Assembly: GCA_964497535.1 (NCBI GenBank)
Contig: CAZCCG010000001.1
Coordinates: forward strand, 66,688-130,687
Length of the DNA: 64,000 nucleotides
Reading direction: 5' to 3'
DNA from: an uncultured Gammaproteobacteria bacterium
GTDB lineage: Bacteria; Patescibacteriota; Microgenomatia; Levybacterales; UBA12049
Shown here: in pieces, positions 36,686-58,657 of the stretch
How positions within the stretch are numbered: the first letter of the stretch is position 1
Layout of the letters: every line of letters starts with the position of its first letter
Notes under the pieces: model-generated
What the model saw: the letters and a program-made list of their open reading frames with translations, nothing else
The model's database searches: none
Told to the model about the DNA's origin: nothing
Translations under genes and position numbers: made by a program

Positions 36686-36711
36686 GATAAGCGTAAAGTG
36701 TAAAACGAAAA

Positions 36712-37086: not shown

Positions 37087-37157
37087 TTTGTTATTGTTTT
37101 TCACTTTTCACTTTTAATTTTACGCTTTCATGTTGTATACTATAATAAATTCACATA

Positions 37158-37490: not shown

Positions 37491-37511
37491 CAAACTAAAG
37501 AAAAACTTACT

Positions 37512-37949: not shown

Positions 37950-38004
37950 AGATCTCTCCCCTTGTTATTGTTTTTATCACATCAACTTGTTACTATAATT
38001 ATAT

Positions 38005-38363: not shown

Positions 38364-38735
38364 ATGGATCGTAAAAATTATGATATTCATGAACGTATAT
38401 TTAACTTTATTGTAGCTGGTATAGAATTTCTTAATAAACTCCCAAAGACTCCCACTAACCTCATCATTATTAATCAATTAAGCCGGTCAATTACTTCAAT
38501 GGGAGCAAATGACCAGGAAGCCGATGGTGCTCTCACGAAAAAAGATTTTATCCACGGCTTTACTGTCGTCAGAAAAGAAGGAAAAGAATCAGTATTCTGG
38601 TTTAGGCTTATTGGTAAAACAAATAAATCATTCTTTGAAGAGACTTCCCCTTTAATTAAGGAAGGGCATGAGATTGTAGCAATTATAAGTGCTATTATTA
38701 AAAATGCTTCAAATAGCAATAAAGAAAGAAAATAA
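38364..38735 (+). CDS. Four-helix-bundle / Avd-like protein, copy 3.
   Basis: QLSRSITSMGANDQEADGA and FWFRLI motifs; 123 aa. Confidence 0.65.
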   Translation: MDRKNYDIHERIFNFIVAGIEFLNKLPKTPTNLIIINQLSRSITSMGANDQEADGALTKKDFIHGFTVVRKEGKESVFWFRLIGKTNKSFFEETSPLIKEGHEIVAIISAIIKNASNSNKERK

Positions 38736-42398: not shown

Positions 42399-42477
42399 AA
42401 ACTCAACCGTAATCTCCTCTCCTCTTGACTTCTTATGAAATATATTGTCATACTTACTGTTGAAGGAGGTGATTGGA

Positions 42478-42861
42478 ATGCAAGATCAAACACAACAAAT
42501 TCCACCGGAAGTGAAATCTTTTCTTGAAGGTATCTTACAGGATGCCAATATGGTGACGTTGGATGACCAAATGAAAGAAGAGATGGTCAAAGAACTCTAT
42601 GTACGGCTGGATAACTTTATCACAGCAGCGATTGTCGATCATATGCCTGCTGACAAAGTTGAAGAATTTATCAAAATGAACGAGGAAAAAAAGTCCAAAG
42701 AGGACGTTGAAAAATTTGTTAAAGAAGTCATGCCAAATGCCCAAGAGGTATTTACCAATGCTTTCATGGAATTTCGTGATCTGTATTTAGGAGGAGTTGC
42801 TGCAAAACGGAATGAACCGGAAGCTGCAAACACAACCGTTCCATCTTCTTCTAAGAACTAA
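42478..42861 (+). CDS. Small acidic helical protein, partner of the downstream giant protein (paralog of the ORF at 48473).
   Basis: RBS aaggagg before the ATG at 42478. IPPEVKSFLEGILQDANMVTLDD...FIKMNEEKKS...MPNAQEVF aligns with the 48473 protein. Confidence 0.55.
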   Translation: MQDQTQQIPPEVKSFLEGILQDANMVTLDDQMKEEMVKELYVRLDNFITAAIVDHMPADKVEEFIKMNEEKKSKEDVEKFVKEVMPNAQEVFTNAFMEFRDLYLGGVAAKRNEPEAANTTVPSSSKN

Positions 42862-42866
42862 CTACC

Positions 42867-45800
42867 ATGGCAGAAATCAACCAACCAGGTGGTCCTGAAG
42901 TACGATATAATCCTGAAAGAACAGATTCTCGTGAAGCAGTTGTTCATGCTGCACGGGTTGGATTTGATGAATTTAATAAACAAGCGAGAACACTTGAAGC
43001 AAAAAAAACTGATGAACTTACTCCAAAGGAACGCCAATTTCTTCGTGACCGCAATGTTTTCAAAAGTGGTATTGATGAAACGATAGACCACAAAGACGCC
43101 AATGGTAACCCAGCTGCGCGAGATAGCATTCCAACCGACTTTGAAAATAGAGAAAATCCGCAAGGCCCACAATTTCGACAATATGAAGGGATTCCTGTCG
43201 GAAGAGTAATTGGGTTCCTCCACGAGAAAATTGGGGCATTAGAAGCAGACCCCGCTAGCGACAAAATGTACATTGCAGAACTCAAACAATCCTATGATGT
43301 TTTGAGAAGAAATACTAAGGCATATTCTGAAAGGAGAAGTGTCTCAAATGGAAAGTTTTTCAGTCGCGTCGAAGAAGAGGCACGGAGAATTGCTCAAGAT
43401 CCTTTAGTAGCAACCCATGACCAAAATGGCAACTCTGATCTGGTAGCAAATTACTATTATGCGCTCAATGAGATTCGAACCAGACAGGAACTGATATTCC
43501 CCAAAAATAAAAACGTAGTACTCCCCCCTGAGGAACCTGATACAAAATTATTGCCGCCAGGACAACGACCGGCAGAATTACCTCCGGGGAATCATCCCCC
43601 AGAGCTTCCTCCTGGACAAAAACCAGGAGAACTAGGACCCGGTCAACATCCACCGGAACTTCCTCCGGGGGTACATCCTCCTGAATTACCCCCAGGCCAA
43701 AAACCTCCGGAACTACCACCCGGGCAGAAACCGCCGGAATTACCGCCGGGAGTTAAACCACCAGAATTACCACCTGGAGATCGTCCTCTAGAACTTCCGC
43801 CCGGTAGACCAACACCGGAAGATGTAGACCAGATCAGGCGTGATTTTGCTATTGTTAATCGCCACGCAGATGTAGAAAAGCGAGCACGAGAATACGCAGA
43901 GCAAAAAGTCCGTGAAGAATATAAAAAAGGCAGTTTCTTAAATCCCAAAGATATGTTCCGTAAAATAAAGCTTCGTGTCGGAGAAGAATATTACCGCCAA
44001 AAATATATCCAGGAAGCTCGCACGGCAATGCTTGCCAATAATAATTCATATATGGACATGGATGCAGCGACTCTCGGACTAACAGACGCAAAACATCGAA
44101 TAGATGAAGAACGTCAAGCAGGGACAGCAAAAGCAGAACAAGTAGCACTTCAAGCGCGGGAAAGAATCCAAGTAGGAGGAACTGAAGTCAAAGAAGCACA
44201 CGGCGCGCTTAAGGATGCGATTATGAAGGACATCATTCGTCCAGTTATTGAGGGCAAAATTACTGACCCAGCACAAGTACAAGATGTTATCAAGCAATTT
44301 GTAGAAGCAAATAATACTGATCCGGATGTCCAGGAAATATTTGGCAAAGACGCCACCCAGTATGGCAAACAGGCAGAATACTATGCGTCCAATTTGTTAG
44401 AAACAGGAGCATTGGTGAGAGAAGATGTAGCAGCTCATCGATATGCTATGGAGCAGATTGACGAAGTCGTGCATATCCAATTAGGTAATCCTTCATGGGC
44501 AGCGGAAACACAAGCTAATTTCAATACTGCTGACAAATTAATTGCAAGGCTTCAAAATGGACCATTGAGAGGATGGGCCGCAAATCCGGCAGCCATCGGG
44601 CTAGCAGCCTCTGCGGTAGGATTTTTTGGTACGAGATTACCCGGCAGAGTAGGACAAGCAGCTGGTGCAGTACCTGGTGTTGGAGTACTCATGGGAGCAG
44701 GATTTGCAGCACTTCGTCGCAACATGGATCTGAAACATGACATGGAAGCCCATCGTGTCGAACGTGCATATAACATGCAGGTTCCAAAAGATGCAAAACG
44801 GCGGGAAGCACTTGAGCAATTTGCCTATAAAACCGCTTCAGTGAATGAGTTACTCGAAGGAGGACAAGACAGAGAAGGAATGCTCGGCGGCGACTCACGG
44901 GGACTAAAAGAATTAGCTCAACTCAATCTATCTATTAATAATCCGAATACTCCAAACCCGGCAGAAACAGATCTACGAGCACTGATGAACCGGGAACATT
45001 TACTCCGTCGTATGTCAGAAGTCCAAGCGCGTCTGGATTTCTCCGCCCAGGAAAAAGTTGATTTGATAACATTTGAAACCCGCGAGCAGGTCGAACAAGG
45101 AAGACTGGAACTCATCAAAGGACTTGCCCAAGCTCGACTGGCATTGAAAAATGCCGGCATGGATGAAGATACCATGAAGGCAGACCTTGATCGGTACGGT
45201 AGTCAATGGACCAAATCATTTATACAGGACCGCGATCAAGAAAACAGAAAGTTTGCCAATTATCGAGTGAAAGAATCACTAAAAGCTGGCGCTTTTGCCG
45301 GCGCAATAGGATTGGGAGGAGTATTCGTCAGCCAGGAAGCTCTTGCCGGCGCAGGAAGAGTCATCGGCAAGCATGTGAATGATACGATACTTGAGCACGG
45401 CATCAAAGGCATCGGAGGAATCGCAGAAACTGTTAAATCCCATCTTCCAACACCAGGATCAGTACCTGCAGCTGTAGGAGCAGTGGCAGAAGCAGGAAGA
45501 AATACTCAACAGGCAATTGGATCTATTGACGTAACTCCAGGTGCGGTTGCAAATAAGGTTGGTGAGGTAGTAAATGGTATACGATCCACAGATATTCCCG
45601 GTGTTGTCTCAGGAGCAGCAGCTGAGGCAGGAAATAAAATTGGCAGTACGAATCCTGAACAAATACTCAGAAGCATGGGAGATTTCCTGACCGCAGAAGC
45701 ACCTGTTCCTTCCTCTTCTGAAATCCATGGATTAATCAGCGCAGACCTGCTCAAACAAGCATATGAAAATCCGCGTAATTTCCCAATTTTTGATGCAGCC

Positions 45801-48356
45801 GGGAACCATATTGCCTCATTTGCAGTCAGCCCTGATATTTCAGAGGACGGCGGACGAGCAGTAACACTTCTGAGTACCGCCCTAGATGCAGAAGGGAATA
45901 AAGTTCAACTCCCTACCCCGCCGATGTGGGTTGACCAGGATGCAAAAGGAGGATATCGTCTCATCGCATCAGGAGGAGAATATAATATGCCACAAGGACT
46001 GAAAGATGTAATCAAAACATTTGACCACCAGCGAAGTCCTCAACATGATCTGCGGGCATTGATGAGGCAAGCAGTTGACAGTTATTACGGCCGGGGAGGA
46101 CCAGATACTGTTATTGAAGGTCCGGATTCTATGCGGGGAATGCTCACTACAGAACATGGAGATATCCGGTATGACATCTCTCATGAAGGATATGACAAAT
46201 GGGCAAAAGTTGCAGCAGAAGCCGGAGATACCTTGCGTGATGGAGAAATTGGCAAGATGTCTATCCAGGATGCACTAACCGGACAACAAATACATGGGTT
46301 TGTAAATAAAGACAATATAGCCCGCTTCCCACTGGATCATTATGGTAATGAAGCTATTGGAATTGACCAGTGGAAAGCGATGGCACAAAAGCTTTCGGTT
46401 GACGGATGGATATTTCACGACAATACCGGTGCCGTAGTACAACCGCAGGATATTACTCCCCATATGGAACTGTTTGGTACACCCCCCGAAGCAACACAAT
46501 ATGTACCAAAAGATATTGTTGATGCACCGGTAGTCACAACTGCTTTTGCTCCTCGGAACCCGCTTGAAGCAATGGAACGGCCGGATGAGAAAAAGAAACC
46601 GGATGACCAAGAAGGGGAAACTCCACCCCCTGTTACAACCCCTCCATCAGGAGAAACGCCGACAGATCAAACACCTCCTACACCACCAGTCACGACGCCT
46701 CCCCCAGTTCCTCCGGGGGGAGATTCCACCGGAACAACGACTGAGGTAACAGTACCGACAAATACATCTACGGAAGTGGTCACAACCGGCCAGGATAAAA
46801 CAGGAGAAAAAACCCAAACACGTGTACCAATAGAAGAACTTCTTACCTATGAGCAAATGAAAGAGGCGGGATATACAGATGAAGAGATTCAAGAGCACGC
46901 ACAGAAAAAAGAAAAAACGCCCCCAACACAAGAGACAACTGAAACTACCATCCCCATATCCGAACAAGAACCACTCTATCGATATGAAGCAGCAGTGGCA
47001 ACCAAAGCATCTACCCAGCATCCGGATACCAATGAGGATACGGCAATTACCGATGGAGGAAAAGGAGTTATTGCAGTATTTGATGGGTCAGGAGGAAATA
47101 GTGCAAGTATACTGGGGAAAGAATCTTTTGAGACAGCTCTTGCAACACTTCCTCCTCGCGCTACCAGAGCTGAAATTGAAGCGGCAATGCAGGCCGGATG
47201 GAAAACCTCTCAAGAAAGAATCCAGGCAGATGAAGCGGCGAATCCGGATCACAAAGGAATGGCATCAACCGGTACTGTTGTAAAAATATTCATGGAGAAT
47301 GGCAAACGCTATGCCATGGTGCTACAAGCCGGCGACAGTAGAGGAAGTTTTGTACAGAAAGATGGGACGCTACGACAAGTCACGAAAGATGATGCCGCAA
47401 GACTCGGCAATGACAGCCAAATGCCCTCAATTGATGTCGTAGAAGTAACAGATAATGACGCATTCTTTATAACCACCACCAAAGGTGTCCATGAACAGTT
47501 TACTCCTGAGGAAATGGCTGCAACTGCAAAGGGACATAAATCTGCGCAAGAGTTAGTAAGAAGACTTGTTATGATAAAAGCGCTTGAAGCACGCAGAAAG
47601 AACATACCCATTCCTGACGATATGACAGCAGCGGCAATTAAATTGGAGGGTATAGATACTTCCAAAACAGGAAAAACTGAGGAAGAACAACAAAGGGAAC
47701 GAAGAGTAGAGCTAGGTAGTATAGTAGACATAATTCGGTCACTTAAAGAGAAGGGAGAAGCTACAACCAACCCGTTGTTCTTTACTGGAGCTAATGGTGA
47801 ATATGGGTGGGAAGAGGTTCGGATGGGATCTCCTGTTAAGGCAGATAGTGACCACGCCTTTCGCGGGTATCTCATGGTAGAACCAAATGACATTCCGCTA
47901 GCTATGCAGATTCTCCTCAAGAAAGCTCCTCAGCTGCTTGCCCAAGGTCAAGGAGTCGATGCCAAATTCTTACTGATGAAATTACCTCAATTCGCAGATG
48001 TCGCAGAACGAAATAAATATATCAATAATCGTGATAACTTGGCTAAGTATGAAGGCCTCACACCTGAAGATCCCCGCATTGCCCTATATGGAGATTCACA
48101 GGCAGCTATTGAAGCGATTTTGACAGTTCTGGCCGAGGATCCGCAGTGGCAAGATATTGAGCAACGAAGACTAGATGCGTTTGGAGGATCTGATCATACT
48201 CCCCGAAGACCCGGAACTAATGCCTTAGTACACAAGGGGAGAGAATATAGATCCTTAAACTATGGAAACATACGCGGGTATTCTGAAGATGAAGCTGCAG
48301 ATCCCGCCTGGAGAGATAAAAAAATCGGTGAACAGACCGTACCGTTAGCTTCGTAA
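42867..48356 (+). CDS. Giant protein (1829 aa): shared N-terminal region, 10 tandem ELPPGxxPP repeats, Gly-rich hydrophobic segments, C-terminal PP2C-like Ser/Thr phosphatase domain.
   Basis: PP2C motifs seen by eye near 47.0-47.6 kb: HPDTNED, VFDGSGGN, GMASTGTVV, QAGDSRGSF, VTKDD, VTDNDAFFITTTKGV. The N-terminal roughly 700 aa are collinear with the 48808 protein. Confidence 0.6.
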   Translation: MAEINQPGGPEVRYNPERTDSREAVVHAARVGFDEFNKQARTLEAKKTDELTPKERQFLRDRNVFKSGIDETIDHKDANGNPAARDSIPTDFENRENPQGPQFRQYEGIPVGRVIGFLHEKIGALEADPASDKMYIAELKQSYDVLRRNTKAYSERRSVSNGKFFSRVEEEARRIAQDPLVATHDQNGNSDLVANYYYALNEIRTRQELIFPKNKNVVLPPEEPDTKLLPPGQRPAELPPGNHPPELPPGQKPGELGPGQHPPELPPGVHPPELPPGQKPPELPPGQKPPELPPGVKPPELPPGDRPLELPPGRPTPEDVDQIRRDFAIVNRHADVEKRAREYAEQKVREEYKKGSFLNPKDMFRKIKLRVGEEYYRQKYIQEARTAMLANNNSYMDMDAATLGLTDAKHRIDEERQAGTAKAEQVALQARERIQVGGTEVKEAHGALKDAIMKDIIRPVIEGKITDPAQVQDVIKQFVEANNTDPDVQEIFGKDATQYGKQAEYYASNLLETGALVREDVAAHRYAMEQIDEVVHIQLGNPSWAAETQANFNTADKLIARLQNGPLRGWAANPAAIGLAASAVGFFGTRLPGRVGQAAGAVPGVGVLMGAGFAALRRNMDLKHDMEAHRVERAYNMQVPKDAKRREALEQFAYKTASVNELLEGGQDREGMLGGDSRGLKELAQLNLSINNPNTPNPAETDLRALMNREHLLRRMSEVQARLDFSAQEKVDLITFETREQVEQGRLELIKGLAQARLALKNAGMDEDTMKADLDRYGSQWTKSFIQDRDQENRKFANYRVKESLKAGAFAGAIGLGGVFVSQEALAGAGRVIGKHVNDTILEHGIKGIGGIAETVKSHLPTPGSVPAAVGAVAEAGRNTQQAIGSIDVTPGAVANKVGEVVNGIRSTDIPGVVSGAAAEAGNKIGSTNPEQILRSMGDFLTAEAPVPSSSEIHGLISADLLKQAYENPRNFPIFDAAGNHIASFAVSPDISEDGGRAVTLLSTALDAEGNKVQLPTPPMWVDQDAKGGYRLIASGGEYNMPQGLKDVIKTFDHQRSPQHDLRALMRQAVDSYYGRGGPDTVIEGPDSMRGMLTTEHGDIRYDISHEGYDKWAKVAAEAGDTLRDGEIGKMSIQDALTGQQIHGFVNKDNIARFPLDHYGNEAIGIDQWKAMAQKLSVDGWIFHDNTGAVVQPQDITPHMELFGTPPEATQYVPKDIVDAPVVTTAFAPRNPLEAMERPDEKKKPDDQEGETPPPVTTPPSGETPTDQTPPTPPVTTPPPVPPGGDSTGTTTEVTVPTNTSTEVVTTGQDKTGEKTQTRVPIEELLTYEQMKEAGYTDEEIQEHAQKKEKTPPTQETTETTIPISEQEPLYRYEAAVATKASTQHPDTNEDTAITDGGKGVIAVFDGSGGNSASILGKESFETALATLPPRATRAEIEAAMQAGWKTSQERIQADEAANPDHKGMASTGTVVKIFMENGKRYAMVLQAGDSRGSFVQKDGTLRQVTKDDAARLGNDSQMPSIDVVEVTDNDAFFITTTKGVHEQFTPEEMAATAKGHKSAQELVRRLVMIKALEARRKNIPIPDDMTAAAIKLEGIDTSKTGKTEEEQQRERRVELGSIVDIIRSLKEKGEATTNPLFFTGANGEYGWEEVRMGSPVKADSDHAFRGYLMVEPNDIPLAMQILLKKAPQLLAQGQGVDAKFLLMKLPQFADVAERNKYINNRDNLAKYEGLTPEDPRIALYGDSQAAIEAILTVLAEDPQWQDIEQRRLDAFGGSDHTPRRPGTNALVHKGREYRSLNYGNIRGYSEDEAADPAWRDKKIGEQTVPLAS
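43549..43812 (+). repeat. 27-nt tandem repeat (about 10 units) encoding (E/L)LPPGxxPP inside the 1829-aa protein.
   Basis: Periodic ccggaacttcctccggg variants read directly; the protein shows PPGQRPAELPPGNHPPELPPGQKPGEL continuing to PPGRPTPE. Confidence 0.85.
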
Positions 48357-48472
48357 TATAGTGTTTATCAGCTCCTCATAAGCTAACTATAAGCCAGCTA
48401 TTATTGACATACGTGGTACCACCTGTAATACTTGAATAGGCAAAGGTGGTGATTTTTGTGGATGAACAAACA

Positions 48473-48799
48473 ATGAAAATTCCGAAAGAAATTCGAGACT
48501 ATTTGGAAAATCTGCTGAAAGATGCGCAGATGACTCCGCTGGATGAGGAAATGCACGAAGAAATGATTATGCAGCTCTATCGTCGACTCGATACCTTTCT
48601 CAATGCAACCATTATGAATCACCTTCCTCCAAAGCATATGGACGCATTTATAAAGATCAATGAGGAAAAGAAGTCTCAGGCAGAAATTGAGCAATTCTTA
48701 AAAGAAAACATGCCCAATGCTCAAGACGTTTTTGCACAAGCGTTTGTTGATTTTAGAAAAACCTATCTGGGAGATTCAAAATCAAAAGATAGTAACTAA
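48473..48799 (+). CDS. Small acidic helical protein, partner of the downstream giant protein (paralog of the ORF at 42478).
   Basis: RBS aggtgg before the ATG at 48473. IPKEIRDYLENLLKDAQMTPLDE...FIKINEEKKS...MPNAQDVF. Confidence 0.55.
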   Translation: MKIPKEIRDYLENLLKDAQMTPLDEEMHEEMIMQLYRRLDTFLNATIMNHLPPKHMDAFIKINEEKKSQAEIEQFLKENMPNAQDVFAQAFVDFRKTYLGDSKSKDSN

Positions 48800-48807
48800 T
48801 ACAACCT

Positions 48808-51800
48808 ATGCCAGACATAACAGCACCTGATCGACTGCCCCCCGCACCGGTCCATCAAGCAGATCGGAATATTGTTCGTGGCCCAAACCGACCCTTACCT
48901 CCCGCACCAATCCGTCAGGAAGATAGAGAAAGTGACCACAGAGAAGACCACCAAACAGTAACCAATAATCATGATAACGGCCAGCCACAAGATGAAAAAA
49001 TTCGAGTTAACATTATCAATACTCAAGAAGAAGCAAGTAAAGCAGGGAAAGAACGTGCTGAAGAGCGCAAGAATGAGATCCTCCGACATCCTCCCGGATG
49101 GAGTATTGTTAATTGGGCACGACGCATTGGTATGCGATGGATTGAAGGTGGTTGGGTCAGTATTCAAAAAGACCGATATATGGAAGTTATGCGCCGAAAT
49201 GGCTCAACACTTCTCACTACGGATATGGCACGGGGAGCAGCAGCTATTACCCAAGCCGAGAGAGCACAACATCAACAAAAACAAGAAGCTGTTATTGAAC
49301 GGTTTCAAAGCCGTAATGAAACAGATCTTGCAAACAGAGGAGAACTCAAACGTACACTTGATCGACCAGAAAACCAAGAAGTACGCAATTTGATTGTCAA
49401 TGAAATCCTCAGGCCTATTACAAATGGTACTGTTACCAATCCCGATCAAGTACAGGCACAGCTCGCCCAATTTGTTCTCAACCATATTGACAATCCTCTC
49501 GTCCGAGAATTCTTTGGTGCCGAAGCAAACATGTTTGGCGATCGTGCACAGTTCTTTGCAACTGATTTGTTCGAAACAGGTCAACGAGTCAAGATAAAGA
49601 TGGAGCAGGAGAATAAAAGCCTAGGCGATTTAGATCATCTTATTGAAGTCACCGTCGGACTTGCCAAAGGAGGAGCAATGACGGATACCCGTGGAAATAT
49701 AGACCAGTGGGTTGCAGCGGCAAAACGGCGACAAGCAAATATACTTGCAAGCGGAGCACAGGGACTAGGATTCCATGGAATTATTTCCAATCCTGCTGTT
49801 GTCGGTATTGCAGGAAGCTTGGCTGCGCAAGGGTTGCTACGAGGGGCAGGAGCAGCAGGACGAGCATTGGATCTTCCGTCCCTAGGTGTTGGCTCTTTAA
49901 TGGCAGGAGTAGCAGCTGGTGTCAGAGCTCGAAGCGAATTCCGCGCTGACCGGGCAATGAGTCAAGTACAACGTGTTGCATATGGACAAACGCCGGAAGC
50001 AAATGCGAGAAAACATCAGGAGTTGGCCAGATTTGATTACCAAACAGTACAAGCGGAAGAGCTCCTGCGAGGCGGAGGAACAGACTCTATTAGCGGTGTC
50101 CCCCGTAGAAGTTTTGATGACCTGTTGACAGCAGACTTAACCCTTGAAGCGAATAGAACCCAGGTCTTCAGCCGTATCGCAGAAATCGACAGCCGGATTG
50201 AGTACGGCAATATGAACAATGTAGATCTGATTTCCTATTCCGGTAAAGATGTTATGGAACGCCAACGAATGCAGATGGATCAGGAAATTGCACGAGCCCG
50301 AATTACTCTCAGACGAACAGGCCTGTCTAACACAGAAATTGATAGCGAAATTGACCGACTCAAAACTGAGGCAAACAGAAGACTCATACAAAATAGAGAA
50401 GCCCAAGATCAGCAATTCGAACAAGCACGGATGCGCTATGCCCTCAGACAAGGTGGTCAAGCAGCATTGTTTGGAGCTGTCTTTGGACTTGCATCCCAAG
50501 AAGGAGTTGCTCTTGCTTCTCGAGCTGCATCTCATATAGCAGATAATGTCCCAATTGCCGGGGGATTGAAAAATATTGGCCTCTTTCGACAAACCGGAAG
50601 TACTATTGCAGAAATTCCCTGGAACAAAGTTATGGAGGCAACCGGACATGATAACCTCAGAACTGATATTTCGATAGCCTCTTTGGGACTCAACCTCAAT
50701 AAAGTCCAGGAACTCTATCAGCATCCGGGAAATATGGATTTCCAAATGCCTGATGGGTCACACTATACCCTGGCAGTTGGAGATAGTTACCAGGCAAGTC
50801 TTCTCGACGCAGCAGGAAATCGTGTTCCCACCGGGCCGCTTGAAATCACTCAGGAAGGACATGTTATTTCCTGGGGACCAGTTCCTGACCAACTCAAATC
50901 AACGCTCAAAGATACGTTGGGCTGGACCATCAATGAAAATGTACCCAACCCCGATTATGATTTGGCAAAGGGAGTAACCCGCTGGATGGAAGCTGTCCAG
51001 AATGGCAATGCGGAACACATCACCGGTATCCATGGCAACATGATCTACGACTTGCAACCGGATGGACAGATGTCGGTAACCCTCAATCCGACAACTGACA
51101 ATGTGATGATCCATGGATTTGGCACCATGACCGATGGCAAAGGAATGATTGATGTTGATCCGACATTCAATGGCAATGCAGAGGCATTTGCCAATCATGG
51201 TGATCTGATCCGCAACGAATTGGGGGCAGCCGGATTTCAGGTAGATGTCGAAACTATTCCGGGGCATGATGAGACTGTTGATATTGCAGATTATCTGCGA
51301 GAGAAGGGCGAACTCTCCCCAACCATGAGAGAACTCTGGCATGATAACCAAACTCCCATGCGGTTTGTAAATGGCCGTTGGATCGGCGCAGACGGTAAAG
51401 AATTACAACTCTACCATCACGTCAAAGATGTAGGTCCAGTGACACCACAACAAGCACTAAGCCACATCAAAGAGCAGATCCCTCCCCAGATGCTTCGTAA
51501 CCCGCATGTGCAACAATTAATGCAGGAATTACAAAAACCAGGGACACTGCAAAGTCTTACTCCTGAGAAAGTACAACAACTGGTTGGACAACTTCCTCCC
51601 GAAATGCAAAAAACTCCTCAAGTACAAGCCGCAGTTGAGGAATTCAATAAAGTATTCCAGACCAAACAACGGGTCGTTGAAGTAGACTTTGCTAAAATGG
51701 TCAGCCAATTCCAACGAGGAGTGTGGCGCAATTGGGATTATTCTGTTGATAATCAATATAACCGTGTGGTCAATGACATTGTTGCGCAGCCGGATGGCAC

Positions 51801-53505
51801 ACGACTCTATAGAAATTTTGAAGTGATGATCACCCCCAATAAAGCCCTGGATTCAGCCAGACAAGCAGTGGTATTTAGCCTGGACAAACATCCAGAACTA
51901 CTTACAGGCAAACTCGACTTTGACGTCAATTCCGAAGAGGCAAAGATGTTCTTCCAACTTGATGAAAATGGGAATCCCATTGCCAATAGTTTTGGTCCGC
52001 AAAATTATCAAAAAGCTGCATTTATAGAAATTGCGCATATGCAACCAAATGGTTTGAGAACTATTCTCGCAACGTCACAGGGACCGGGCATTGATCAGTG
52101 GCATCACAAAACTCCCGATCATCAGATATTCCATGTCACTCCCCCTTCTTCAACAGAACTCATCCCGCCGGAAGCTCCCCTTCCCGGAGATACACCGTGG
52201 CTTGTCACTCCCGGCCGCACTCCGAGACATCCGTTGGAAAGAACAACCCCAGGGTTACCTCCTATAGAACCCCCAGTTAGAGAACGGTACCCGGGACTAC
52301 CAACATACGAAGGCAACTTTCCCCCTGGTAGTCGCATGAAGAATATTTTAAGAAGAAAAAACCAAGGAAGGATAGAACCGGGAAGAATTCAAGTAAATGA
52401 TAGTGAAGGTCAACGAGCACTCCAGGAAGCTAAAGACGCATTTGGACAAGCAGATAGTATTTATTTTGTTCTAGGAGGCGCTATTGGTGATTCTGTTATT
52501 GCCACCGCATATTTACGAGGAATCGAAGAAGCTCTCCGACAACAAGGCAGGAATACTCCAATAACAATTATTGCGAATCAAGATTATGGAAATCTATTTG
52601 ATGGCCTTGCCAGAGGAAATGTTAGTATCATAAAAGCCCCCCGAGGAACGGGATTGTCCACTGCTGAAAGAAACATTGCAACCGCTGCATCATCATCTCC
52701 CTTAATTATTGATTTTGAACATTATAGAGACGAAAATCCAGCTATTACAAAAGACCTACTTACAGGGACAACAACGATAAGCAATTTACTTGGCCCTTCT
52801 ATTGAACTCTATAATAATAATACCGATAGGGAAAGAAGATATAGCCATGTTATCGAAGATCTATTTTCTTTAAACAAAGATTCCATTCCACCTCAGGAAG
52901 CACGGCCATCTATTCCGCCGCCTGCAAATAAGGATAGGCTCTACCAAGCTGTTGCTCAACGATGTGGAATCGATATGAATAACCAAAACCAAATTGGAAT
53001 TGTCGTTGAAGGATCACGAGCAGGCAAACGATATAGTTTGGACAACTGGACACAAGTTATTTCTGAAATATCTGCACAAAAGCCTGGATATCAGTTCAAT
53101 ATACTTTATAACGCAAATAATCCACAATCAGGCTATGGGAGAGTAGATATTGAACGGGCTATTGCGCGTGCCGGGCTTACGAATGTGCACATAATTGAAG
53201 CTAACCTAGAAGAATCGGTTTCTCTTATGGATAAACAAAAATTAGTATTGTCTAATGATACCGGCTTTGCCCACGTTGCAGCGTCGATTGAAAATGGACC
53301 AAAAGCAGTGACAATCTTTACTCCGAAGAATTTTCCACCAGTCTTCTGGGTATCGAGTGATAGACAAATCCCTGTTATGATATCCTCCACTCAGGAAGCT
53401 AGACTCCCGGATGTAGACATCAATGTAGATGATGAGAGACAAAAACTCATTAATAAAATCCCTCCACGACAAGTAGCACAAGCAGCTATTACTCAGCTCC
53501 CTTAA
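48808..53505 (+). CDS. Giant protein (1565 aa): N-terminal region paralogous to the 42867 protein, C-terminal GT9 (heptosyltransferase-like) glycosyltransferase-fold domain.
   Basis: GT9-like blocks near 52.4-53.4 kb: YFVLGGAIGDSVIATAYLRGI, GKRYSLDNWTQVI, LVLSNDTGFAHVAASIENGPKAVTIFTP. N-terminal blocks (NPDQVQ, LFETG, Gly-rich segments) align with the 42867 protein. Confidence 0.6.
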   Translation: MPDITAPDRLPPAPVHQADRNIVRGPNRPLPPAPIRQEDRESDHREDHQTVTNNHDNGQPQDEKIRVNIINTQEEASKAGKERAEERKNEILRHPPGWSIVNWARRIGMRWIEGGWVSIQKDRYMEVMRRNGSTLLTTDMARGAAAITQAERAQHQQKQEAVIERFQSRNETDLANRGELKRTLDRPENQEVRNLIVNEILRPITNGTVTNPDQVQAQLAQFVLNHIDNPLVREFFGAEANMFGDRAQFFATDLFETGQRVKIKMEQENKSLGDLDHLIEVTVGLAKGGAMTDTRGNIDQWVAAAKRRQANILASGAQGLGFHGIISNPAVVGIAGSLAAQGLLRGAGAAGRALDLPSLGVGSLMAGVAAGVRARSEFRADRAMSQVQRVAYGQTPEANARKHQELARFDYQTVQAEELLRGGGTDSISGVPRRSFDDLLTADLTLEANRTQVFSRIAEIDSRIEYGNMNNVDLISYSGKDVMERQRMQMDQEIARARITLRRTGLSNTEIDSEIDRLKTEANRRLIQNREAQDQQFEQARMRYALRQGGQAALFGAVFGLASQEGVALASRAASHIADNVPIAGGLKNIGLFRQTGSTIAEIPWNKVMEATGHDNLRTDISIASLGLNLNKVQELYQHPGNMDFQMPDGSHYTLAVGDSYQASLLDAAGNRVPTGPLEITQEGHVISWGPVPDQLKSTLKDTLGWTINENVPNPDYDLAKGVTRWMEAVQNGNAEHITGIHGNMIYDLQPDGQMSVTLNPTTDNVMIHGFGTMTDGKGMIDVDPTFNGNAEAFANHGDLIRNELGAAGFQVDVETIPGHDETVDIADYLREKGELSPTMRELWHDNQTPMRFVNGRWIGADGKELQLYHHVKDVGPVTPQQALSHIKEQIPPQMLRNPHVQQLMQELQKPGTLQSLTPEKVQQLVGQLPPEMQKTPQVQAAVEEFNKVFQTKQRVVEVDFAKMVSQFQRGVWRNWDYSVDNQYNRVVNDIVAQPDGTRLYRNFEVMITPNKALDSARQAVVFSLDKHPELLTGKLDFDVNSEEAKMFFQLDENGNPIANSFGPQNYQKAAFIEIAHMQPNGLRTILATSQGPGIDQWHHKTPDHQIFHVTPPSSTELIPPEAPLPGDTPWLVTPGRTPRHPLERTTPGLPPIEPPVRERYPGLPTYEGNFPPGSRMKNILRRKNQGRIEPGRIQVNDSEGQRALQEAKDAFGQADSIYFVLGGAIGDSVIATAYLRGIEEALRQQGRNTPITIIANQDYGNLFDGLARGNVSIIKAPRGTGLSTAERNIATAASSSPLIIDFEHYRDENPAITKDLLTGTTTISNLLGPSIELYNNNTDRERRYSHVIEDLFSLNKDSIPPQEARPSIPPPANKDRLYQAVAQRCGIDMNNQNQIGIVVEGSRAGKRYSLDNWTQVISEISAQKPGYQFNILYNANNPQSGYGRVDIERAIARAGLTNVHIIEANLEESVSLMDKQKLVLSNDTGFAHVAASIENGPKAVTIFTPKNFPPVFWVSSDRQIPVMISSTQEARLPDVDINVDDERQKLINKIPPRQVAQAAITQLP

Positions 53506-53561
53506 CCCCATCCTATAAGTTCTTACAAACATTTTGTTAGGCATTTGTTATCCTATAGTGC

Positions 53562-53590
53562 TTGACTTTGAGGCTATTTCATGGTATACT
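53562..53590 (+). promoter_or_regulatory. Consensus sigma70-type promoter (TTGACT, 17-nt spacer, TATACT) driving the GC-rich cassette gene.
   Basis: TTGACT at 53562-53567, exact 17-nt spacer, TATACT at 53585-53590. About 105-nt GC-rich leader with AAGGAG at 53685-53690. Confidence 0.55.
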
Positions 53591-53699
53591 ACCCCTGCAT
53601 TCTGGACAAGTAGAGGCAAATCTCAAGTGCCGAACGCTTGTCCCCAGTGCGCACGCACGTTTCAGCAGAGGGGGACAACCCCAGAAGGAGCAGACTCAA

Positions 53700-54140
53700 A
53701 TGCCTCAGCAGCACGGCAGGCAACGCGGCATTCGCGAGCGCGTCGGAGAGGTCCTATTGGGGCCCGAAGGCACCCGCCGCAACCAGCCCCATGCGCAGGC
53801 GGCAGAGCCTCTGACCCAGCAAGCCCAGACGGCCACGCCCGTGGGGCCACGCTTCGACGGGCACACGCTCATCGGGGCGACCCTGCTCAAGCTCGGCCGC
53901 GGCAGCGGCCACGACGGCTACCTCCTCCGCCTCTTGGCGGACGGCAAGGCCGCCGAGGCTCCCGAGTGGGAGCCGAATAACGCCTGGGAGGCCAGCTGGA
54001 AACTCGACGAGCAGGGCAACCTGCACGTCACGGCCAACGGGGTCACCACCTCGGTCTCGCCCAAGCGCGCGGGCATCCCGCGCCGGTACGAGGCCAGACA
54101 GGACGAGACGCCTTACAGCGTCTACATCCTGAGCGACTAG
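53700..54140 (+). CDS. Hypothetical protein encoded by a compositionally foreign gene (65-75% GC, GC3-rich codons).
   Basis: ATG at 53700 preceded 9 nt upstream by AAGGAG; 147 codons; stop at 54138. The supplied ORF starts further upstream, but the upstream codons overlap the promoter. Confidence 0.5.
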   Translation: MPQQHGRQRGIRERVGEVLLGPEGTRRNQPHAQAAEPLTQQAQTATPVGPRFDGHTLIGATLLKLGRGSGHDGYLLRLLADGKAAEAPEWEPNNAWEASWKLDEQGNLHVTANGVTTSVSPKRAGIPRRYEARQDETPYSVYILSD

Positions 54141-54158
54141 TTCAGGAACGTGCCCCAT

Positions 54159-54200
54159 GGGGCGGCTCGCGCAGCATTGCGCAGCCGCCCCTTTTTCTTT
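54159..54200 (+). terminator. Strong intrinsic terminator of the GC-rich cassette gene.
   Basis: ggggcggctcgcgcagcattgcgcagccgcccc hairpin followed by tttttcttt. Confidence 0.7.
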
Positions 54201-54400
54201 GTTATAGGACTTTTCACAGAAAACCCCTTTTTTATACCCCTTTGACCTACTTTGATAACCTTGCAATAGGATTTTTCACGTTATACACTAATTGAGACTC
54301 TTCTATAGGGTTTATATTCTATGGTGGGGTCTCAACTGTCCATCTTCAACGCATCTGTTTGAAACTGGATATTTGAAACAAGTATTCATTTCTATTTATT

Positions 54401-55735
54401 ATGGAGCAACATCCTATCCCTCAAGACGTTACCGGATTTCAATTCCGCCTCATTGGAGACATGACAATCAAGCAATTTGCCTATGTCGCAGCCGGTGTTA
54501 TCTTGGCGTATCTGTGCTTTAATCTTCCTCTTTCACCGCTCATAAAAATACCCTTGGCTCTTTTGATTGGAGGCTTTGGTGCGGCGTTGGCATTTGTTCC
54601 CATTGAAGGACGACCATTGGATGTTATGGTAACTCATTTTGTCAAAGCGTTATTCACCCCCACTCAGTATACCTATCAAAAAGTAGGAGGCAAACTCTCA
54701 ATGACCTCGGTACATATGGTTACGCCCCAAAAGACAATGGTTGCAGTCCACACTGCTCCCGAATGGAAACAACAAAGATCTGATGATTCCCGAAAAAAGT
54801 TGCAGATGTATTTACAACAACTTCCCCATGCAACCCAAAATAAGCTTGATCAAAAAGAGCAAGTATTCTTTGAGTCGATGGCTCATGGATTTACTCAGCT
54901 CCCTTCTGTCCCCCAGCCAGCAATGCCGCAGCAACCGTCTGAGGGAAAACAGCAAGGATCTGGCACGTATTTTGTATCGGTCACAGGAGATCAACCGCAA
55001 GAGCAACCTCAACCACAGGCGCAACCGCCGGTTCCCGCGCCTGTTCCAACTCCCCCTCAACAGGCAGATGACACAAAAAATGAACAGGCACTTATTGCAC
55101 AAGAACAGGCAATTCAACAGGCATTAGCCGAAGCCAAAAAACAGGAGGAATTACAAGTAGAAGCACACCAAGAGACTGCTCAAACCCATGAGAAAGTGAA
55201 TGAACTTGAGGGACAACTCAATGAAGTTATGGTACAAAAACAAAAATTGGAAGAGCAACTATTGAGACTGCAAAAAAAACTTGATACTACCCATCCCCAG
55301 GTCTTTACGCCAAGCACTGCAACGGTGCAGCCCCAAGAACAACCTGCTCAAACGCAAAATGTACGCAGAATTCCCCGTGGTATGGAGACAAAAGTAGGAA
55401 CTCCTATGACTCCTGATGTGCCAAATATTATTCTGGGGATCATTAAGGATCCCCGAGGCAATGTGCTTCCTGGTATTTTGGTGGAAGTGAAAGATGCCGA
55501 GGGAAATCCGGTTCGGGCATTTAAAACCAACCAGCTGGGACAATTCGCATCTGCTACCCCGCTTCTCAATGGTACCTATACCATTGAATTTGAAGACTCT
55601 ACAGAAAAGAATACATTTGCTACAATTCAATTAGAGGCAATCGGAGCAATCATGGAACCGATTGAAGTAATATCCAATGACAAACGGGAAGATTTGAGAA
55701 AATCACTGTTTGGAAAACCAGGAGAAAAAGTTTAA
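54401..55735 (+). CDS. T4SS-associated membrane protein: VirB3/PrgI-like N-terminus, Gln/Pro-rich coiled-coil, C-terminal carboxypeptidase-regulatory-like beta-sandwich.
   Basis: N-terminal hairpin TM pair (AYVAAGVILAYLCF, LALLIGGFGAALAFV) as in VirB3/PrgI. C-terminal IILGIIKDPRGNVLPGILVEVKD...GTYTIEFE resembles the CarbopepD_reg fold. Confidence 0.45.
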   Translation: MEQHPIPQDVTGFQFRLIGDMTIKQFAYVAAGVILAYLCFNLPLSPLIKIPLALLIGGFGAALAFVPIEGRPLDVMVTHFVKALFTPTQYTYQKVGGKLSMTSVHMVTPQKTMVAVHTAPEWKQQRSDDSRKKLQMYLQQLPHATQNKLDQKEQVFFESMAHGFTQLPSVPQPAMPQQPSEGKQQGSGTYFVSVTGDQPQEQPQPQAQPPVPAPVPTPPQQADDTKNEQALIAQEQAIQQALAEAKKQEELQVEAHQETAQTHEKVNELEGQLNEVMVQKQKLEEQLLRLQKKLDTTHPQVFTPSTATVQPQEQPAQTQNVRRIPRGMETKVGTPMTPDVPNIILGIIKDPRGNVLPGILVEVKDAEGNPVRAFKTNQLGQFASATPLLNGTYTIEFEDSTEKNTFATIQLEAIGAIMEPIEVISNDKREDLRKSLFGKPGEKV

Positions 55736-55764
55736 AGATTAAAGTGTAAAACTTTTCATTACAT

Positions 55765-56433
55765 ATGGCCAATACTGCCCAGAAAGTCAAATCATCAACT
55801 CAAAAGTTTACTGAAATCATCGGCATTGATGAGGAAATTGTATTGATGGAAGGAGGCAATGCCTGCCTGATTATTGAAATTACCGCATCAAATTTTGCCC
55901 TTCTTTCCCAAGCAGAACAGCAGGCAAAAATCTTTTCCTACGCGTCACTTCTCAATTCCCTGTCATTCCCTATCCAAATCGTCGTTAAGAACAAACAGGT
56001 CGATATCACTTCATATCTCAAGCTTTTGGATTCCCAAGCGCAGAGCACAAAAAATGAAATGCTTTCCTTGCATATCCAACTGTATCGTGATTTTGTACAG
56101 GATTTGGTGAAAGTAAATACCGTGTTGGACAAAAAGTTTTATGTTGTTATCCCCTATTCCTATTTGGAAAAAGGGGTTACGGGAGCAGCCACAACCTCAA
56201 CCAAAAAAGGGGTTGTCCAAAAAACATTTGTTGACGATGCCAGAAAAAACCTCAAACTCAAAGCCGATGCAATTCAGGCGCAACTTGCCAGATTGGGACT
56301 TCCGGCAACAACCCTTGGGAAAGAAGAATTAATCAAACTCTTCTATGGCATTTTCAACCAGGATTTGACAGAAACTTCCCAAATCTCAGATGATATTAAA
56401 GCACCGGTTATTAAAGCAGCACAAAAAACATAA
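55765..56433 (+). CDS. VirB4 N-terminal-domain-like protein (separate ORF, stop 1 nt before the VirB4 start).
   Basis: EIIGIDEEIVLMEGGNACLIIEITASNFALLSQAEQQAKIFSYASLLNSLSFPIQIVVKN resembles the N-terminal block of Gram-positive conjugative VirB4 homologs (recalled from memory). Confidence 0.4.
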   Translation: MANTAQKVKSSTQKFTEIIGIDEEIVLMEGGNACLIIEITASNFALLSQAEQQAKIFSYASLLNSLSFPIQIVVKNKQVDITSYLKLLDSQAQSTKNEMLSLHIQLYRDFVQDLVKVNTVLDKKFYVVIPYSYLEKGVTGAATTSTKKGVVQKTFVDDARKNLKLKADAIQAQLARLGLPATTLGKEELIKLFYGIFNQDLTETSQISDDIKAPVIKAAQKT

Positions 56434-56434
56434 T

Positions 56435-58657
56435 ATGAAATTATCATTTGGTAAAAAGGCACAACAACCAACACCAGCACCGGTTACACCTGCAGGAGGA
56501 AAACCACAGCAACCTAAGGCTGCTGCTCCGGTAAAAAAGGTCACTCCCCCCACGGGATATGTCTCTCTGGAACATTTAGAAAAAGGGATGATTTCCCTGG
56601 CAGATCTATTGGCCCCTTCTTCTGTTGAGGTTGATTTTCGCTATATCCGAGTCGGAGATAAATATTACCGGACATTTTTTGTCGTTGGGTATCCCCGCTA
56701 TGTATCGGCCAACTGGTTACAACCACTGATTGATTTTGACCATACCCTGGATATTTCCATGTTTATTTACCCTACTTCTTCAGCTGATGTACTCTCGGAT
56801 TTACGACGAAAAATTGCGGAAATGGAAGCAACTATTTCATCTGAATCTGAGCAGGGAAAAGTTGTAGATCCCAAAGTTACGGCAGCATTGCAAGATGCTC
56901 TCTCTCTTCAGGAAGAACTGGCAAAAGGAGTAGAACGATTTTTTCAATTCAGCCTGTATGTTACTGTCTCTGCAGAGGATATTACCAAACTTGATGAAGC
57001 TTCAAAGGTACTCCAAACAACACTCGCCTCAATCCTTCTGTTGGCAAAGACAGCAACACTTCAGATGGAGGAAGGCTTTAAGACAACGCTTCCTATTGGC
57101 CAGGACCGGCTCTTTTTGACACGTAACATGGATACCACGTCCCTTGCTTCAACCTTTCCCTTTACGTCTGCCACATTAACCCAAGACAAAGGAGTCATGT
57201 ATGGAATTAACGAACAAAATGGCTCGCTCATCATTTTTGACCGGTTTTCTCTTGAAAATGCCAATGAAGTAGTGTTGGGTAAATCCGGTGCGGGAAAATC
57301 ATTTCTCATCAAGCTTGAGATTATGCGGCAGTTTATGTTTGGCACCGATGTTATTGTCGTTGATCCTGAAGGGGAATATGGCAAACTGGCTGCCACCCTA
57401 GGAGGGGAAGAAGTCGCTTTCACCCCCTCCTCTCCTGTCAAGATTAACCCATTTGATCTTTCAGGACTCTATGAAGAAGGTGAAAATGAATTGGGGCTCA
57501 AAATTCTGTCATTACATGCATTACTTCGTATCGTTTTGGGCAACCTGGATGCCTCTCAAGATGCTATTTTGGATCGCGCCCTGGTTGAGACATACAAGCA
57601 ACGCGGTATTACCGCAGACCCAACAACCCAGAAAAGTGAACCTCCCCTTATGGAAGATTTATATAAAACCCTTTTGGGAACCGAGAATCCAACGGCAAAA
57701 GAACTCGCGCTGCGGCTGGAGAAATTTATTAAAGGCAGCTTGAGCGGTATTTTCAACCAACAATCCAACTTTAATCTGAGTAACCCTCTCACTATATTCT
57801 CGATCAAAGCTCTGGAAGATGAGCTGCGTCCGATTGCCATGCATATTATTCTGGATTTTGTCTGGACCAAAGTACGCAAGACCCTGAAAAAACGGCTTCT
57901 GATCCTGGATGAGGCGTGGTATATGATGAAATATGAAGACTCTGCCAGCTTTGTCTATGGCATTGCAAAACGGGCACGCAAATATTACCTGGGACTCACC
58001 ACTGCCACGCAAGATGTAGAAGATTTCCTTTCAACCGATTACGGCAAAGCGGTTCTGTCAAATTCCTCAATTCAAATGCTTCTGAAGCAAGGGACAACTG
58101 AGGTTGATATGATTTCCAAAACATTTTATCTTTCAGAGGGAGAGAAAGAACTCCTCTTAACAGCAGATGTGGGAGAAGGACTCTTTTTTGCAGGAAGAAA
58201 CCATGTACCCATCAAAGTTGTTGCAGCACCCTTTGAAAATACTATTATTACGTCAAATCCGGAAGAAGTCATGAAGAACCTGGCGCAACAACAAGCAGTC
58301 CCGCAAGGGCTGACAAATATGATGGCGGCACCGCAAGAACCGGCAGCACCCGCAGACCCCAGTTTGCCTCCAGTCTTCCATCCAAATGCAGTTGCCAATG
58401 CCGTTTCTAATCGTCCGACACCGGCTGCTCCCGCAAAACCTGATCCGCTTGATCCATTTGAAAAAGTCTCACCGGTCAAAATAGAGACTCCTGCTGCGCC
58501 TGTTGCTCCGACGACAACACAATCTCCTATTCCCCCAACTCAACCTTCTATACCACCAGCTGCTGCTCCAGTCATAACCCAAACGCCAACAGCTCCTCCA
58601 TCCCAAATACCTACACCTGGGGTACAATCTCCTGCGCCAACCCCTCCCCGACCATAG
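56435..58657 (+). CDS. virB4: VirB4/TrbE/CagE-family type IV secretion ATPase.
   Basis: Walker A VVLGKSGAGKSF, Walker B LLILDEAWYM, and N-terminal VirB4 block FRYIRVGDKYYRTFFVVGYPRYV. Low-complexity Pro/Ala-rich N- and C-terminal tails. Confidence 0.8.
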   Translation: MKLSFGKKAQQPTPAPVTPAGGKPQQPKAAAPVKKVTPPTGYVSLEHLEKGMISLADLLAPSSVEVDFRYIRVGDKYYRTFFVVGYPRYVSANWLQPLIDFDHTLDISMFIYPTSSADVLSDLRRKIAEMEATISSESEQGKVVDPKVTAALQDALSLQEELAKGVERFFQFSLYVTVSAEDITKLDEASKVLQTTLASILLLAKTATLQMEEGFKTTLPIGQDRLFLTRNMDTTSLASTFPFTSATLTQDKGVMYGINEQNGSLIIFDRFSLENANEVVLGKSGAGKSFLIKLEIMRQFMFGTDVIVVDPEGEYGKLAATLGGEEVAFTPSSPVKINPFDLSGLYEEGENELGLKILSLHALLRIVLGNLDASQDAILDRALVETYKQRGITADPTTQKSEPPLMEDLYKTLLGTENPTAKELALRLEKFIKGSLSGIFNQQSNFNLSNPLTIFSIKALEDELRPIAMHIILDFVWTKVRKTLKKRLLILDEAWYMMKYEDSASFVYGIAKRARKYYLGLTTATQDVEDFLSTDYGKAVLSNSSIQMLLKQGTTEVDMISKTFYLSEGEKELLLTADVGEGLFFAGRNHVPIKVVAAPFENTIITSNPEEVMKNLAQQQAVPQGLTNMMAAPQEPAAPADPSLPPVFHPNAVANAVSNRPTPAAPAKPDPLDPFEKVSPVKIETPAAPVAPTTTQSPIPPTQPSIPPAAAPVITQTPTAPPSQIPTPGVQSPAPTPPRP

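Follow-up and report, generated by a model that had tools for sequence, protein, structure and literature searches.

A gene cassette of about 0.65 kb, most likely a self-contained single-gene unit whose transcribed part is foreign DNA, was analysed in a 64 kb stretch of DNA (the whole of this stretch is called the window; 42.9% G+C) from an uncultured bacterium. The host is a member of the Levyibacteriota, within the candidate phyla radiation (CPR) or Patescibacteria, a tiny-celled organism of groundwater type with a G+C content (GC) of about 43%. The cassette lies between genes for giant proteins and the promoter of a type IV secretion system (T4SS) operon, and it probably represents a rare gene that was imported horizontally, and very recently, from a source of about 72% GC, with a host-type promoter and with insulation by a terminator. 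Recent horizontal acquisition had been proposed in an earlier, sequence-only reading of the window. That reading is now partly supported, and the acquisition itself gains support from three sides: the island is missing from 80 related loci, the GC of its first and third codon positions fits a genome of about 72% GC, and its right junction lies 8 nt from conserved sequence.

The cassette and its coding sequence

The GC-rich island that had drawn attention in the sequence-only reading was borne out by measurement. The GC rises between about 53600 and 54200, standing at 0.64-0.73 in 100-nt windows from 53650 to 54149, and the 300-nt maximum of 0.72 stands about 5.7 standard deviations above the mean of the window (0.429, standard deviation 0.051). 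Outside the island the GC is nowhere above 0.61 in the 64 kb, which makes the island the sole peak of its kind. It holds a protein-coding gene on the plus strand, 53700-54140, which was identified by its codon periodicity, its Shine-Dalgarno sequence and a homologue, P0005, described below; the open reading frame (ORF) had been given as 147 aa, and its length is 146 aa plus the stop.

The GC at codon positions 1, 2 and 3 (GC1, GC2 and GC3) of this gene is 0.712, 0.507 and 0.890, or 70% overall, against 0.533, 0.376 and 0.365 in host genes (averaged from 29 genes of the window), among which the highest GC3 is 0.478. The flanking genes have 43-46% GC and a GC3 of 0.35-0.37. As had been remarked, nearly all codons end in G or C (130 of the 146), and GC3 is 0.78 in codons 1-50 and 0.93-0.96 in codons 51-146. 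The preferred codons are CTC, GTC, CGC, GCC and GGC; a donor clade was sought in this codon choice and the attempt was dropped, the preferred codons being judged not diagnostic. The richness in Arg, Gly and Ala reported for the protein also stands, as Gly, Ala, Leu, Arg and Pro are its commonest residues, with Gly, Ala, Arg and Pro together making up 38% of the chain.

Codon-position GC reportedly follows genomic GC according to the Lawrence-Ochman regressions of 1997, which are said to read GC1 = 0.615 GC + 26.9, GC2 = 0.270 GC + 26.7 and, for the third position, GC3 = 1.692 GC - 32.3. These equations give the same expected Salmonella values as those quoted in PMC2394748. By them, the genomic GC implied for the island gene is 72% from GC1 and again 72% from GC3, while the host genes fit 43%. 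Since both positions fit about 72%, the shift is not confined to synonymous sites. Furthermore, a codon-position GC that matches a genome of about 72% GC suggests that the gene arrived too recently to have been ameliorated.

An antisense ORF of 170 aa on the minus strand (53754-54266) mirrors the plus frame, with a GC1 of 0.89 exceeding its GC3 of 0.71, and is a shadow, not a real gene. The gene caller of the Logan assemblies chose this antisense frame, calling a 134-aa protein (P0001; window 53754-54158, minus strand), for which a word-indexed protein search returned no relative except itself. The plus frame is regarded as real because of its G+C-rich coding pattern, its Shine-Dalgarno sequence and its protein homologue P0005.

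The predicted expression signals of the cassette form a complete set on the plus strand. From the stop of the giant gene to the cassette promoter runs an AT-rich spacer (53506-53561, 37% GC) with CCTATAR motifs at 53512 and 53552. It is followed by a predicted sigma-70-type promoter with a TG extended -10, TGGTATACTAC, at 53562-53590. The hexamers TTGACT (53562-53567) and TATACT (53585-53590), separated by a 17-nt spacer, are exactly those reported from the sequence; they fit 10 of the 12 consensus positions and give the best promoter match of the region. In fact, the pattern TTGACW-N17-TAWAMT occurs at only 3 sites in the 64 kb, the cassette promoter among them, with 0.13 expected. The extended -10 string TGNTATACTAC is found exactly at 3 places in the window, namely in the island and in two other transcription units, and its variants precede ordinary native genes and a tRNA.

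The 5' leader of about 103 nt (53596-53699, 56% GC) starts with a 55-nt hairpin at 53596-53651 (-22.8 kcal/mol), inside which the previously noted ggacaag/cttgtcc stem (53604-53610 with 53637-53643) forms. The Shine-Dalgarno sequence AAGGAG, likewise present where it had been seen (53685-53690), is located 9 nt ahead of the ATG and is largely unpaired in the minimum free energy (MFE) fold. The stability of the fold of the whole leader is not significant, with z = -1.5 relative to shuffled sequences. A riboswitch or RNA thermometer, for which the leader had been considered a candidate, was rejected, with no Rfam match in the island region at gathering scores or at E<=10, the z of -1.5 and the mostly unpaired Shine-Dalgarno sequence.

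Downstream of the gene a fold prediction gives an intrinsic terminator at 54159-54200, in agreement with the GC hairpin and T-run seen earlier. Its 14-bp G+C-rich hairpin (54159-54191), with one bulge, is built from the arms GGGGCGGCT (54159-54167) and AGCCGCCCC (54183-54191) around an inner stem GCGCA/TGCGC, and is followed by TTTTTCTTT at 54192-54200. The stretch 54141-54205 that contains it folds with an MFE of -31.6 kcal/mol; a consensus terminator scanner passed over it owing to the scanner's loop rule. The 3' untranslated region (UTR) of the cassette is 63% GC. As judged from its sequence, the terminator would insulate the T4SS promoter downstream. We infer that the promoter and the terminator are active, that the transfer was recent, and that its direction was into the present host.

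Borders, relatives and the single homologue

For comparison, 80 related T4SS loci were fetched by a search with the VirB4 protein. Many of their titles name Levyibacteriota, Microgenomates or the Patescibacteria group and many others are mislabelled; the best VirB4 identity among them is 75-80%, and the gene order PrgI, TraC-like, VirB4 is kept. No comparable GC island was found at the equivalent place in any of them, so that the presence or absence of the island among relatives, which the sequence-only reading had singled out as informative, came out as absence from 80 of 80. Neither tblastn with the island protein nor blastn with the island DNA gave a match in these loci, and a scan of their ORFs for elevated GC3 revealed only out-of-frame shadow ORFs.

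On the right side, blastn similarity to the relatives resumes at 54209, 8 nt past the T-run of the terminator, which places the right edge of the foreign DNA within 54192-54208. On the left side, no blastn similarity to the 80 relatives was detected in the flank 53506-53600, and the neighbouring giant gene is itself variable among relatives; the left edge is therefore defined by composition alone. The overall pattern is that of a segment missing in 80 relatives, with a conserved right neighbour, a variable left neighbour and no close empty site. The stretch from the giant genes to the T4SS promoter is a slot whose accessory genes vary among relatives. In one relative, L059, a Doc/antitoxin-like gene pair was recognized by eye from translations, on the other strand, in the interval that separates a 2290-aa giant gene from the T4SS promoter, and an extra small gene, also recognized by eye, is located between that promoter and PrgI (L059 6993-7630 and 7804-8181). 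Two other relatives, L032 and L033, carry one additional gene that follows the T4SS promoter and precedes PrgI.

The 146-aa protein consists of a basic, Gln/Arg-rich segment predicted to be disordered (residues 1-50) and a predicted all-beta domain (residues about 51-146; pLDDT, the predicted local distance difference score of the structure models, 54-56). No signal peptide is visible by eye, and the product is predicted to be cytoplasmic. No family match was found for it in Pfam, NCBIfam, PHROGs, PADLOC or the PDB sequences. Used as queries in word-indexed protein searches, the plus-strand ORF, its antisense counterpart and a profile built from two sequences returned only the query sequences themselves. 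A full HMMER scan of 1.84 billion representative proteins gave 8 matches, of which one is genuine. The other seven are giant Cna_B/Big_6 repeat proteins, which were dropped, as their E-values sum many weak repeats; their best single stretch scores 17.6 bits, with an independent E far above 1.

The genuine match, P0005 (140 aa), aligns with the island protein in a single stretch, in which 80 residues show 36% identity (44 bits, E 1.7e-6). The two proteins have alike N-termini and have in common the motifs RFDG, EPxxxWExxWK and VSPK. Like the island protein, P0005 is not recognized by the family libraries. The protein comparison suggested in the sequence-only reading thus produced one homologue, and no relative that would qualify as the donor. 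P0005 is encoded on seven metagenome contigs of the aquifer (Rifle-aquifer) type, L083-L089, in a cassette that is identical in every locus fetched, and its contig is 38.6% GC. As seen in L083, this cassette has a TTGACT-17-TATAAT promoter, a leader of about 150 nt, an AAGGAG and a terminator made of a hairpin and a T-run. The leader hairpins of the two cassettes have a similar shape, that is, a 6-bp stem, a 2x2 internal loop and a 6-8-bp stem, a likeness drawn from two sequences only; the nucleotide similarity of their promoter-leader regions is not above chance or shuffles. No paralogue was found in the window or in L083.

GC1, GC2 and GC3 of the P0005 gene are 0.63, 0.44 and 0.54, compared with about 0.48, 0.33 and 0.30 in its neighbours, and its overall GC is 54%, against 70% in the island gene. 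The genomic GC that it implies is 51% from GC3 and 58% from GC1. The lower value from GC3 suggests an originally G+C-rich gene, an older import that has been partly ameliorated. P0005 adjoins a convergent gene for a giant protein, and at its C-terminus this giant shows 45% identity to the product of window 47730-48341. It has matches in the giants of L059 and L008 as well, and the organism that bears P0005 is therefore a relative. The two cassettes are alike in being monocistronic, in the style of promoter, leader, Shine-Dalgarno sequence and terminator, in a GC above that of the genome and in an adjacent related giant; they differ in setting, as the P0005 cassette lies between a RecG/NusB/RNase III block and the convergent giant, on a contig with no T4SS.

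At the level of fold, the model of the island protein gives a hint of the serralysin inhibitors (Inh, APRin and LupI; 1smp_I, 2rn4_A and 6iy4_I), which are eight-stranded barrels, although the pLDDT of the model is 56 and de novo and YceI-type barrels score about equally. Serralysin inhibitors are periplasmic proteins. Membership in the Inh/AprI family was rejected, as the island protein has neither a match to the family in sequence nor an apparent signal peptide. That the all-beta domain is a small barrel of protein-binding or inhibitor type, tied to the neighbouring giants or to the T4SS, is a guess, and a doubtful one.

Origin of the cassette and the alternatives

If the cassette is a recent import, its coding sequence would have evolved for long in a genome of about 72% GC before it entered the 43% GC chromosome of the Levyibacteriota, too recently for drift toward the composition of the host. 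It would have landed in the variable slot that has giant, effector-like genes on one side and the T4SS promoter on the other. Transcription would start from the strong host-style promoter at 53562-53590 and yield an RNA that opens with the 5' hairpin leader, on which AAGGAG would direct translation of the 146-aa cytoplasmic protein. The terminator at 54159-54200 would end this RNA 8 nt short of the T4SS regulatory region, so that the two units would stay separate.

Accessory genes of a comparable build have been described in phages, where a moron is an accessory gene that brings along a promoter and a terminator (Hendrix/Juhala; review by Cumby, Davidson and Maxwell 2012, PMC3594210). The island resembles a moron in that it is a single gene, putatively an addition, with its own predicted promoter and terminator, independent of the flanking operon, and in that its composition differs from that of its neighbours (70% against 43-46% GC, and a GC3 of 0.89 against 0.35-0.37). 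It differs from a moron in that it is situated in a chromosomal T4SS neighbourhood conserved across 80 loci, not in a phage or prophage, and in that its GC jump of about 27 points is far above the usual. The genes around it encode VirB6, T4SS pilins, PrgI, a TraC-like protein, VirB4, a lytic transglycosylase and giant proteins. Phage families did not turn up, and neither PHROGs nor the phage collections gave a match. The cassette would be a moron-like, horizontally acquired islet and not a moron proper. It also resembles the islets treated in the Lawrence-Ochman amelioration framework, since GC1 and GC3 fit a donor of about 72% GC and the second member, P0005, looks partly ameliorated; it is unlike them in that its sole relative is in a low-GC genome of CPR type and its promoter looks native.

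Several observations weigh against a recent import. No donor was found in 15 billion proteins, in 185,579 species (one genome each), in JGI metagenomes, in IMG/VR, or in phages and plasmids. Against phages and plasmids, blastn and tblastn returned nothing, and back-translated DNA scans of species-representative genomes, JGI metagenomes and IMG/VR returned nothing new; these searches are partly blind, in that the antisense ORF was the one chosen by gene callers and a hit in the DNA scans requires a near-exact peptide of 8-9 residues. The sole homologue comes from a low-GC lineage that is itself related, shares the layout and stands beside a related giant, all of which a native, lineage-specific gene would show too. 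The cassette promoter is native in composition and style, and the rise in GC starts near the predicted transcription start and so tracks the transcript and not an arbitrary breakpoint. Two other units of the window show a milder form of the same pattern of promoter, leader, GC-elevated gene and terminator. Finally, among the relatives, whose best VirB4 identity is 75-80%, there is no closely related genome with an empty site, and for this reason the left border and the recency are read from composition alone.

Most of these observations also speak for a native gene, that is, a member of a rare, lineage-specific family of the Levyibacteriota whose GC is kept high along the transcript by selection or by a biased process, examples being mRNA stability or structure and biased repair or conversion in highly transcribed units. 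This explanation is unlikely. In its favour, the P0005 gene has a GC3 of 0.54 in a genome where its neighbours have about 0.30, the GC of the island rises only past the host-style promoter (56% in the leader, 63% in the 3' UTR), and the two units with the same style of promoter carry genes with a GC3 of 0.59-0.67 behind leaders of 48-49% GC, against a host GC3 of 0.365. Since a native-style promoter and a GC rise that tracks the transcript are seen in all three units, a native class of such genes is kept alive as an explanation. It is opposed by the coding sequence itself, in which GC1 (0.71) and GC2 (0.51) are shifted as in the proteome of a genome of about 72% GC and not at synonymous sites alone, and in which GC3 reaches 0.93-0.96 over codons 51-146; we know of no precedent for such a GC3 in a native gene of a 43% GC genome. 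The absence of the island at this locus in the 80 relatives is a further objection, as are the leaders, whose folds are not significantly more stable than those of shuffled sequences. Moreover, the island promoter is not significantly similar to those of the other two units beyond the hexamers, with alignments not above shuffles, so that the likeness is one of style only.

A miniature mobile element is an improbable source of the same arrangement. In such a model the element would have made a target-site duplication, with CCTATA motifs as its ends or recombination sites, and the empty site would be GGCATTTGTTAT joined directly to AGGACTTTTCAC. Indeed, an exact 8-nt direct repeat, TTTGTTAT, at 53544-53551 and 54198-54205 brackets the segment from promoter to terminator, but in 4-6% of trials two flanks as short as these share an 8-mer by chance. 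In addition, 4 of the 18 CCTATAR sites of the window fall within 53512-54309, two on the plus strand at the left (53512 and 53552) and two on the minus strand at the right (54202 and 54303). The short inverted motifs described in the sequence-only reading are present, with TCCTATA at 53511 and 53551 and TATAGGA at 54203; the positions had been given 1-4 nt off, and the fourth site, near 54266, is AATAGGA (6 of 7 positions). These inverted motifs are only 7-8 nt long, and the longest flanking pair, of 14 nt, is 79% complementary and one of 31 such pairs in 1 kb. No second copy of the island, of the diversity-generating retroelement (DGR) type or other, is present in the window, and no transposase or integrase domain was detected in the ORFs scanned.

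The 13/14 direct repeat on which the suggestion of miniature terminal inverted repeats had leaned is exact as reported, at 54204-54217 and 54266-54279, and it also speaks against a mobile element. Its two copies correspond to the two TTTTCAC boxes of the conserved T4SS promoter, and both boxes occur in the island-free relatives L032, L033, L004 and L008. The boxes thus belong natively to the T4SS promoter, as sites that resemble operators, and do not mark where a mobile element ends, and the suggestion of terminal repeats was abandoned. The other suggestion, that the repeats are operators, is plausible for the T4SS promoter and does not hold for the island.

In a quite far-fetched version of the import, the cassette would suit a host cell of high GC and not the symbiont, either as a gene newly taken from the physical host of the episymbiont (via the adjacently encoded machinery for DNA uptake or the T4SS) or, more radically, as a gene that the adjacent T4SS delivers in the manner of transferred DNA (T-DNA) and that the host expresses. 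It would explain codons of about 72% GC beside a universal sigma-70 consensus promoter, and, if true, a host-matched cassette would be a molecular fingerprint of a pairing between Levyibacteriota and host. CPR/Patescibacteria, the Levyibacteriota among them, are uncultured organisms whose hosts are mostly unknown, and an unameliorated gene of about 72% GC beside a T4SS would be direct evidence of very recent gene flow into a genome of this kind; its donor, should it turn up in the same samples, might lead to the partner organism. Whatever its origin, the gene exposes a blind spot of gene callers, as a real protein is missing from the 15-billion-protein collection and families of this kind may be under-counted.

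A chimeric assembly, in which a contaminating high-GC fragment was misjoined into the CPR contig, might be suspected from the extreme jump in composition and from the start of one contig (L002) at 53542, near the left border. It is very unlikely, because identical junctions are found in three assemblies and the unit is cleanly bounded and functional. Two Logan contigs from two other runs also encode the adjacent PrgI-family protein: L001 (SRR9179560; 17.9 kb) is 100% identical over 44401-57417, which includes both junctions, and L002 (SRR9179563) is 100% identical over 53542-57093, which includes the right junction. Furthermore, the segment coincides exactly with a functional unit, which has a host-style promoter at one end and stops 8 nt before conserved native sequence; its homologue in a relative has the same layout; and a k-mer assembler would not be misled by repeats as short as those at the borders. 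Local G+C peaks often turn out to be RNA genes where a genome is AT-rich, and a structured non-coding RNA with an incidental ORF would accommodate the many internal inverted repeats of the region, but it is hardly credible in view of a three-base periodicity (0.71/0.51/0.89) typical of coding DNA, a protein homology to P0005 that persists despite very different nucleotide composition, a Shine-Dalgarno sequence at the proper distance from the ATG and the lack of any match in Rfam, with gathering scores as well as with E<=10.

The T4SS promoter and other features of the window

Directly to the right of the cassette, alignments of the relatives reveal a native, conserved promoter region of the T4SS operon at 54209-54289 on the plus strand. 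Its conserved elements, all on that strand, are a distal TTTTCAC box (54211-54217), the element TTGACCTACTTTGATAAC (54242-54259), a -35 TTGCAA (54261-54266), a proximal box ATTTTTCAC within the 17-nt spacer (54271-54279) and a -10 TACACT (54284-54289). Dozens of relatives have, upstream of PrgI, a sequence with 85-96% identity to that around 54240-54294, and the PrgI-family proteins of these relatives share no more than about 35-65% identity with that of the window. The consensus of the relatives consists of a distal TTTTCAC, about 45-60 nt, TTGACCyAyTTTGATAATC, TTGCAA, a 17-nt spacer with ATTTTTCAC, and TAyrCT. Among the 58 relatives with usable sequence the promoter was recognized in 44, and the distal box in 37 of these 44. 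In 17 relatives the PrgI ATG follows the -10 at 6-10 nt, mostly at 7 nt, which implies a leaderless mRNA. A highly conserved and often leaderless T4SS promoter with two TTTTCAC boxes, present in many relatives among the Levyibacteriota, is thus a by-product of the analysis. In the window itself about 110 nt (54290-54400) separate the -10 from the PrgI ATG (54401), where many relatives have 7 nt; this segment contains a 17-nt inverted repeat (54292-54308 with 54319-54335) and no visible Shine-Dalgarno sequence before the ATG.

The two other units with the extended -10 string are both on the minus strand, and both are divergent from a gene for a TrmB-family regulator. The first (window 1-635) has a promoter at 601-573, a 128-nt leader, an AGGAG and a gene for a 171-aa lipoprotein-like protein of 60% GC; it runs off the window and is complete in L090 (9035-9740), where it ends in a G+C hairpin. 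The second (window 3217-4330) has a promoter at 4312-4284, a leader of about 270 nt, an AGGAG and two genes for small membrane proteins with 53% GC and a GC3 of 0.61-0.67, and its terminators are built on GGGGCGG stems like that of the island. An antisense miscall like that of the island also occurs at L090 5730-5981, where an 83-aa protein was called over the first gene of this 4.3-kb unit. The genes of the two units have no Pfam or NCBIfam matches. Their promoters are homologous over a 65-nt module, ATTTGTCGTC-N8-TTGACA-N17-TATACTAC-R-GGAC..., with an alignment score of 54 against 17.8 +/- 2.4 for shuffled sequences. A second by-product is a small class of cassettes in the host genome that combine elevated GC with a strong promoter.

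To the left of the cassette two consecutive pairs of a DUF5663 small protein and a giant are encoded, at 42445-48356 and 48446-53505. A PP2C-like region is present in the 1829-aa giant, and the 1565-aa giant, immediately upstream of the cassette, carries a GT9 glycosyltransferase domain at its C-terminus. Some 200 aa from the C-terminus of the first giant recur, with 45-48% identity, at the ends of the giants of L083 (5913-8633) and L059 (38-6910), the latter of which has a kinase-like segment as judged by eye. Further T4SS components are encoded 16-26 kb upstream of the core operon (28101-29696 and 35207-38322) and comprise a VirB6/TrbL-family protein and three proteins with a T4SS-pilin domain; a regulator with a Trans_reg_C domain (33808-35166) is interleaved among them. 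Three genes of the 23S-rRNA-IVP family, which are four-helix bundles, were confirmed by Pfam at 33412-33777, 36712-37086 and 38364-38735. A transfer-messenger RNA (tmRNA) gene and seven tRNA genes are located at 21.3-28.0 kb.

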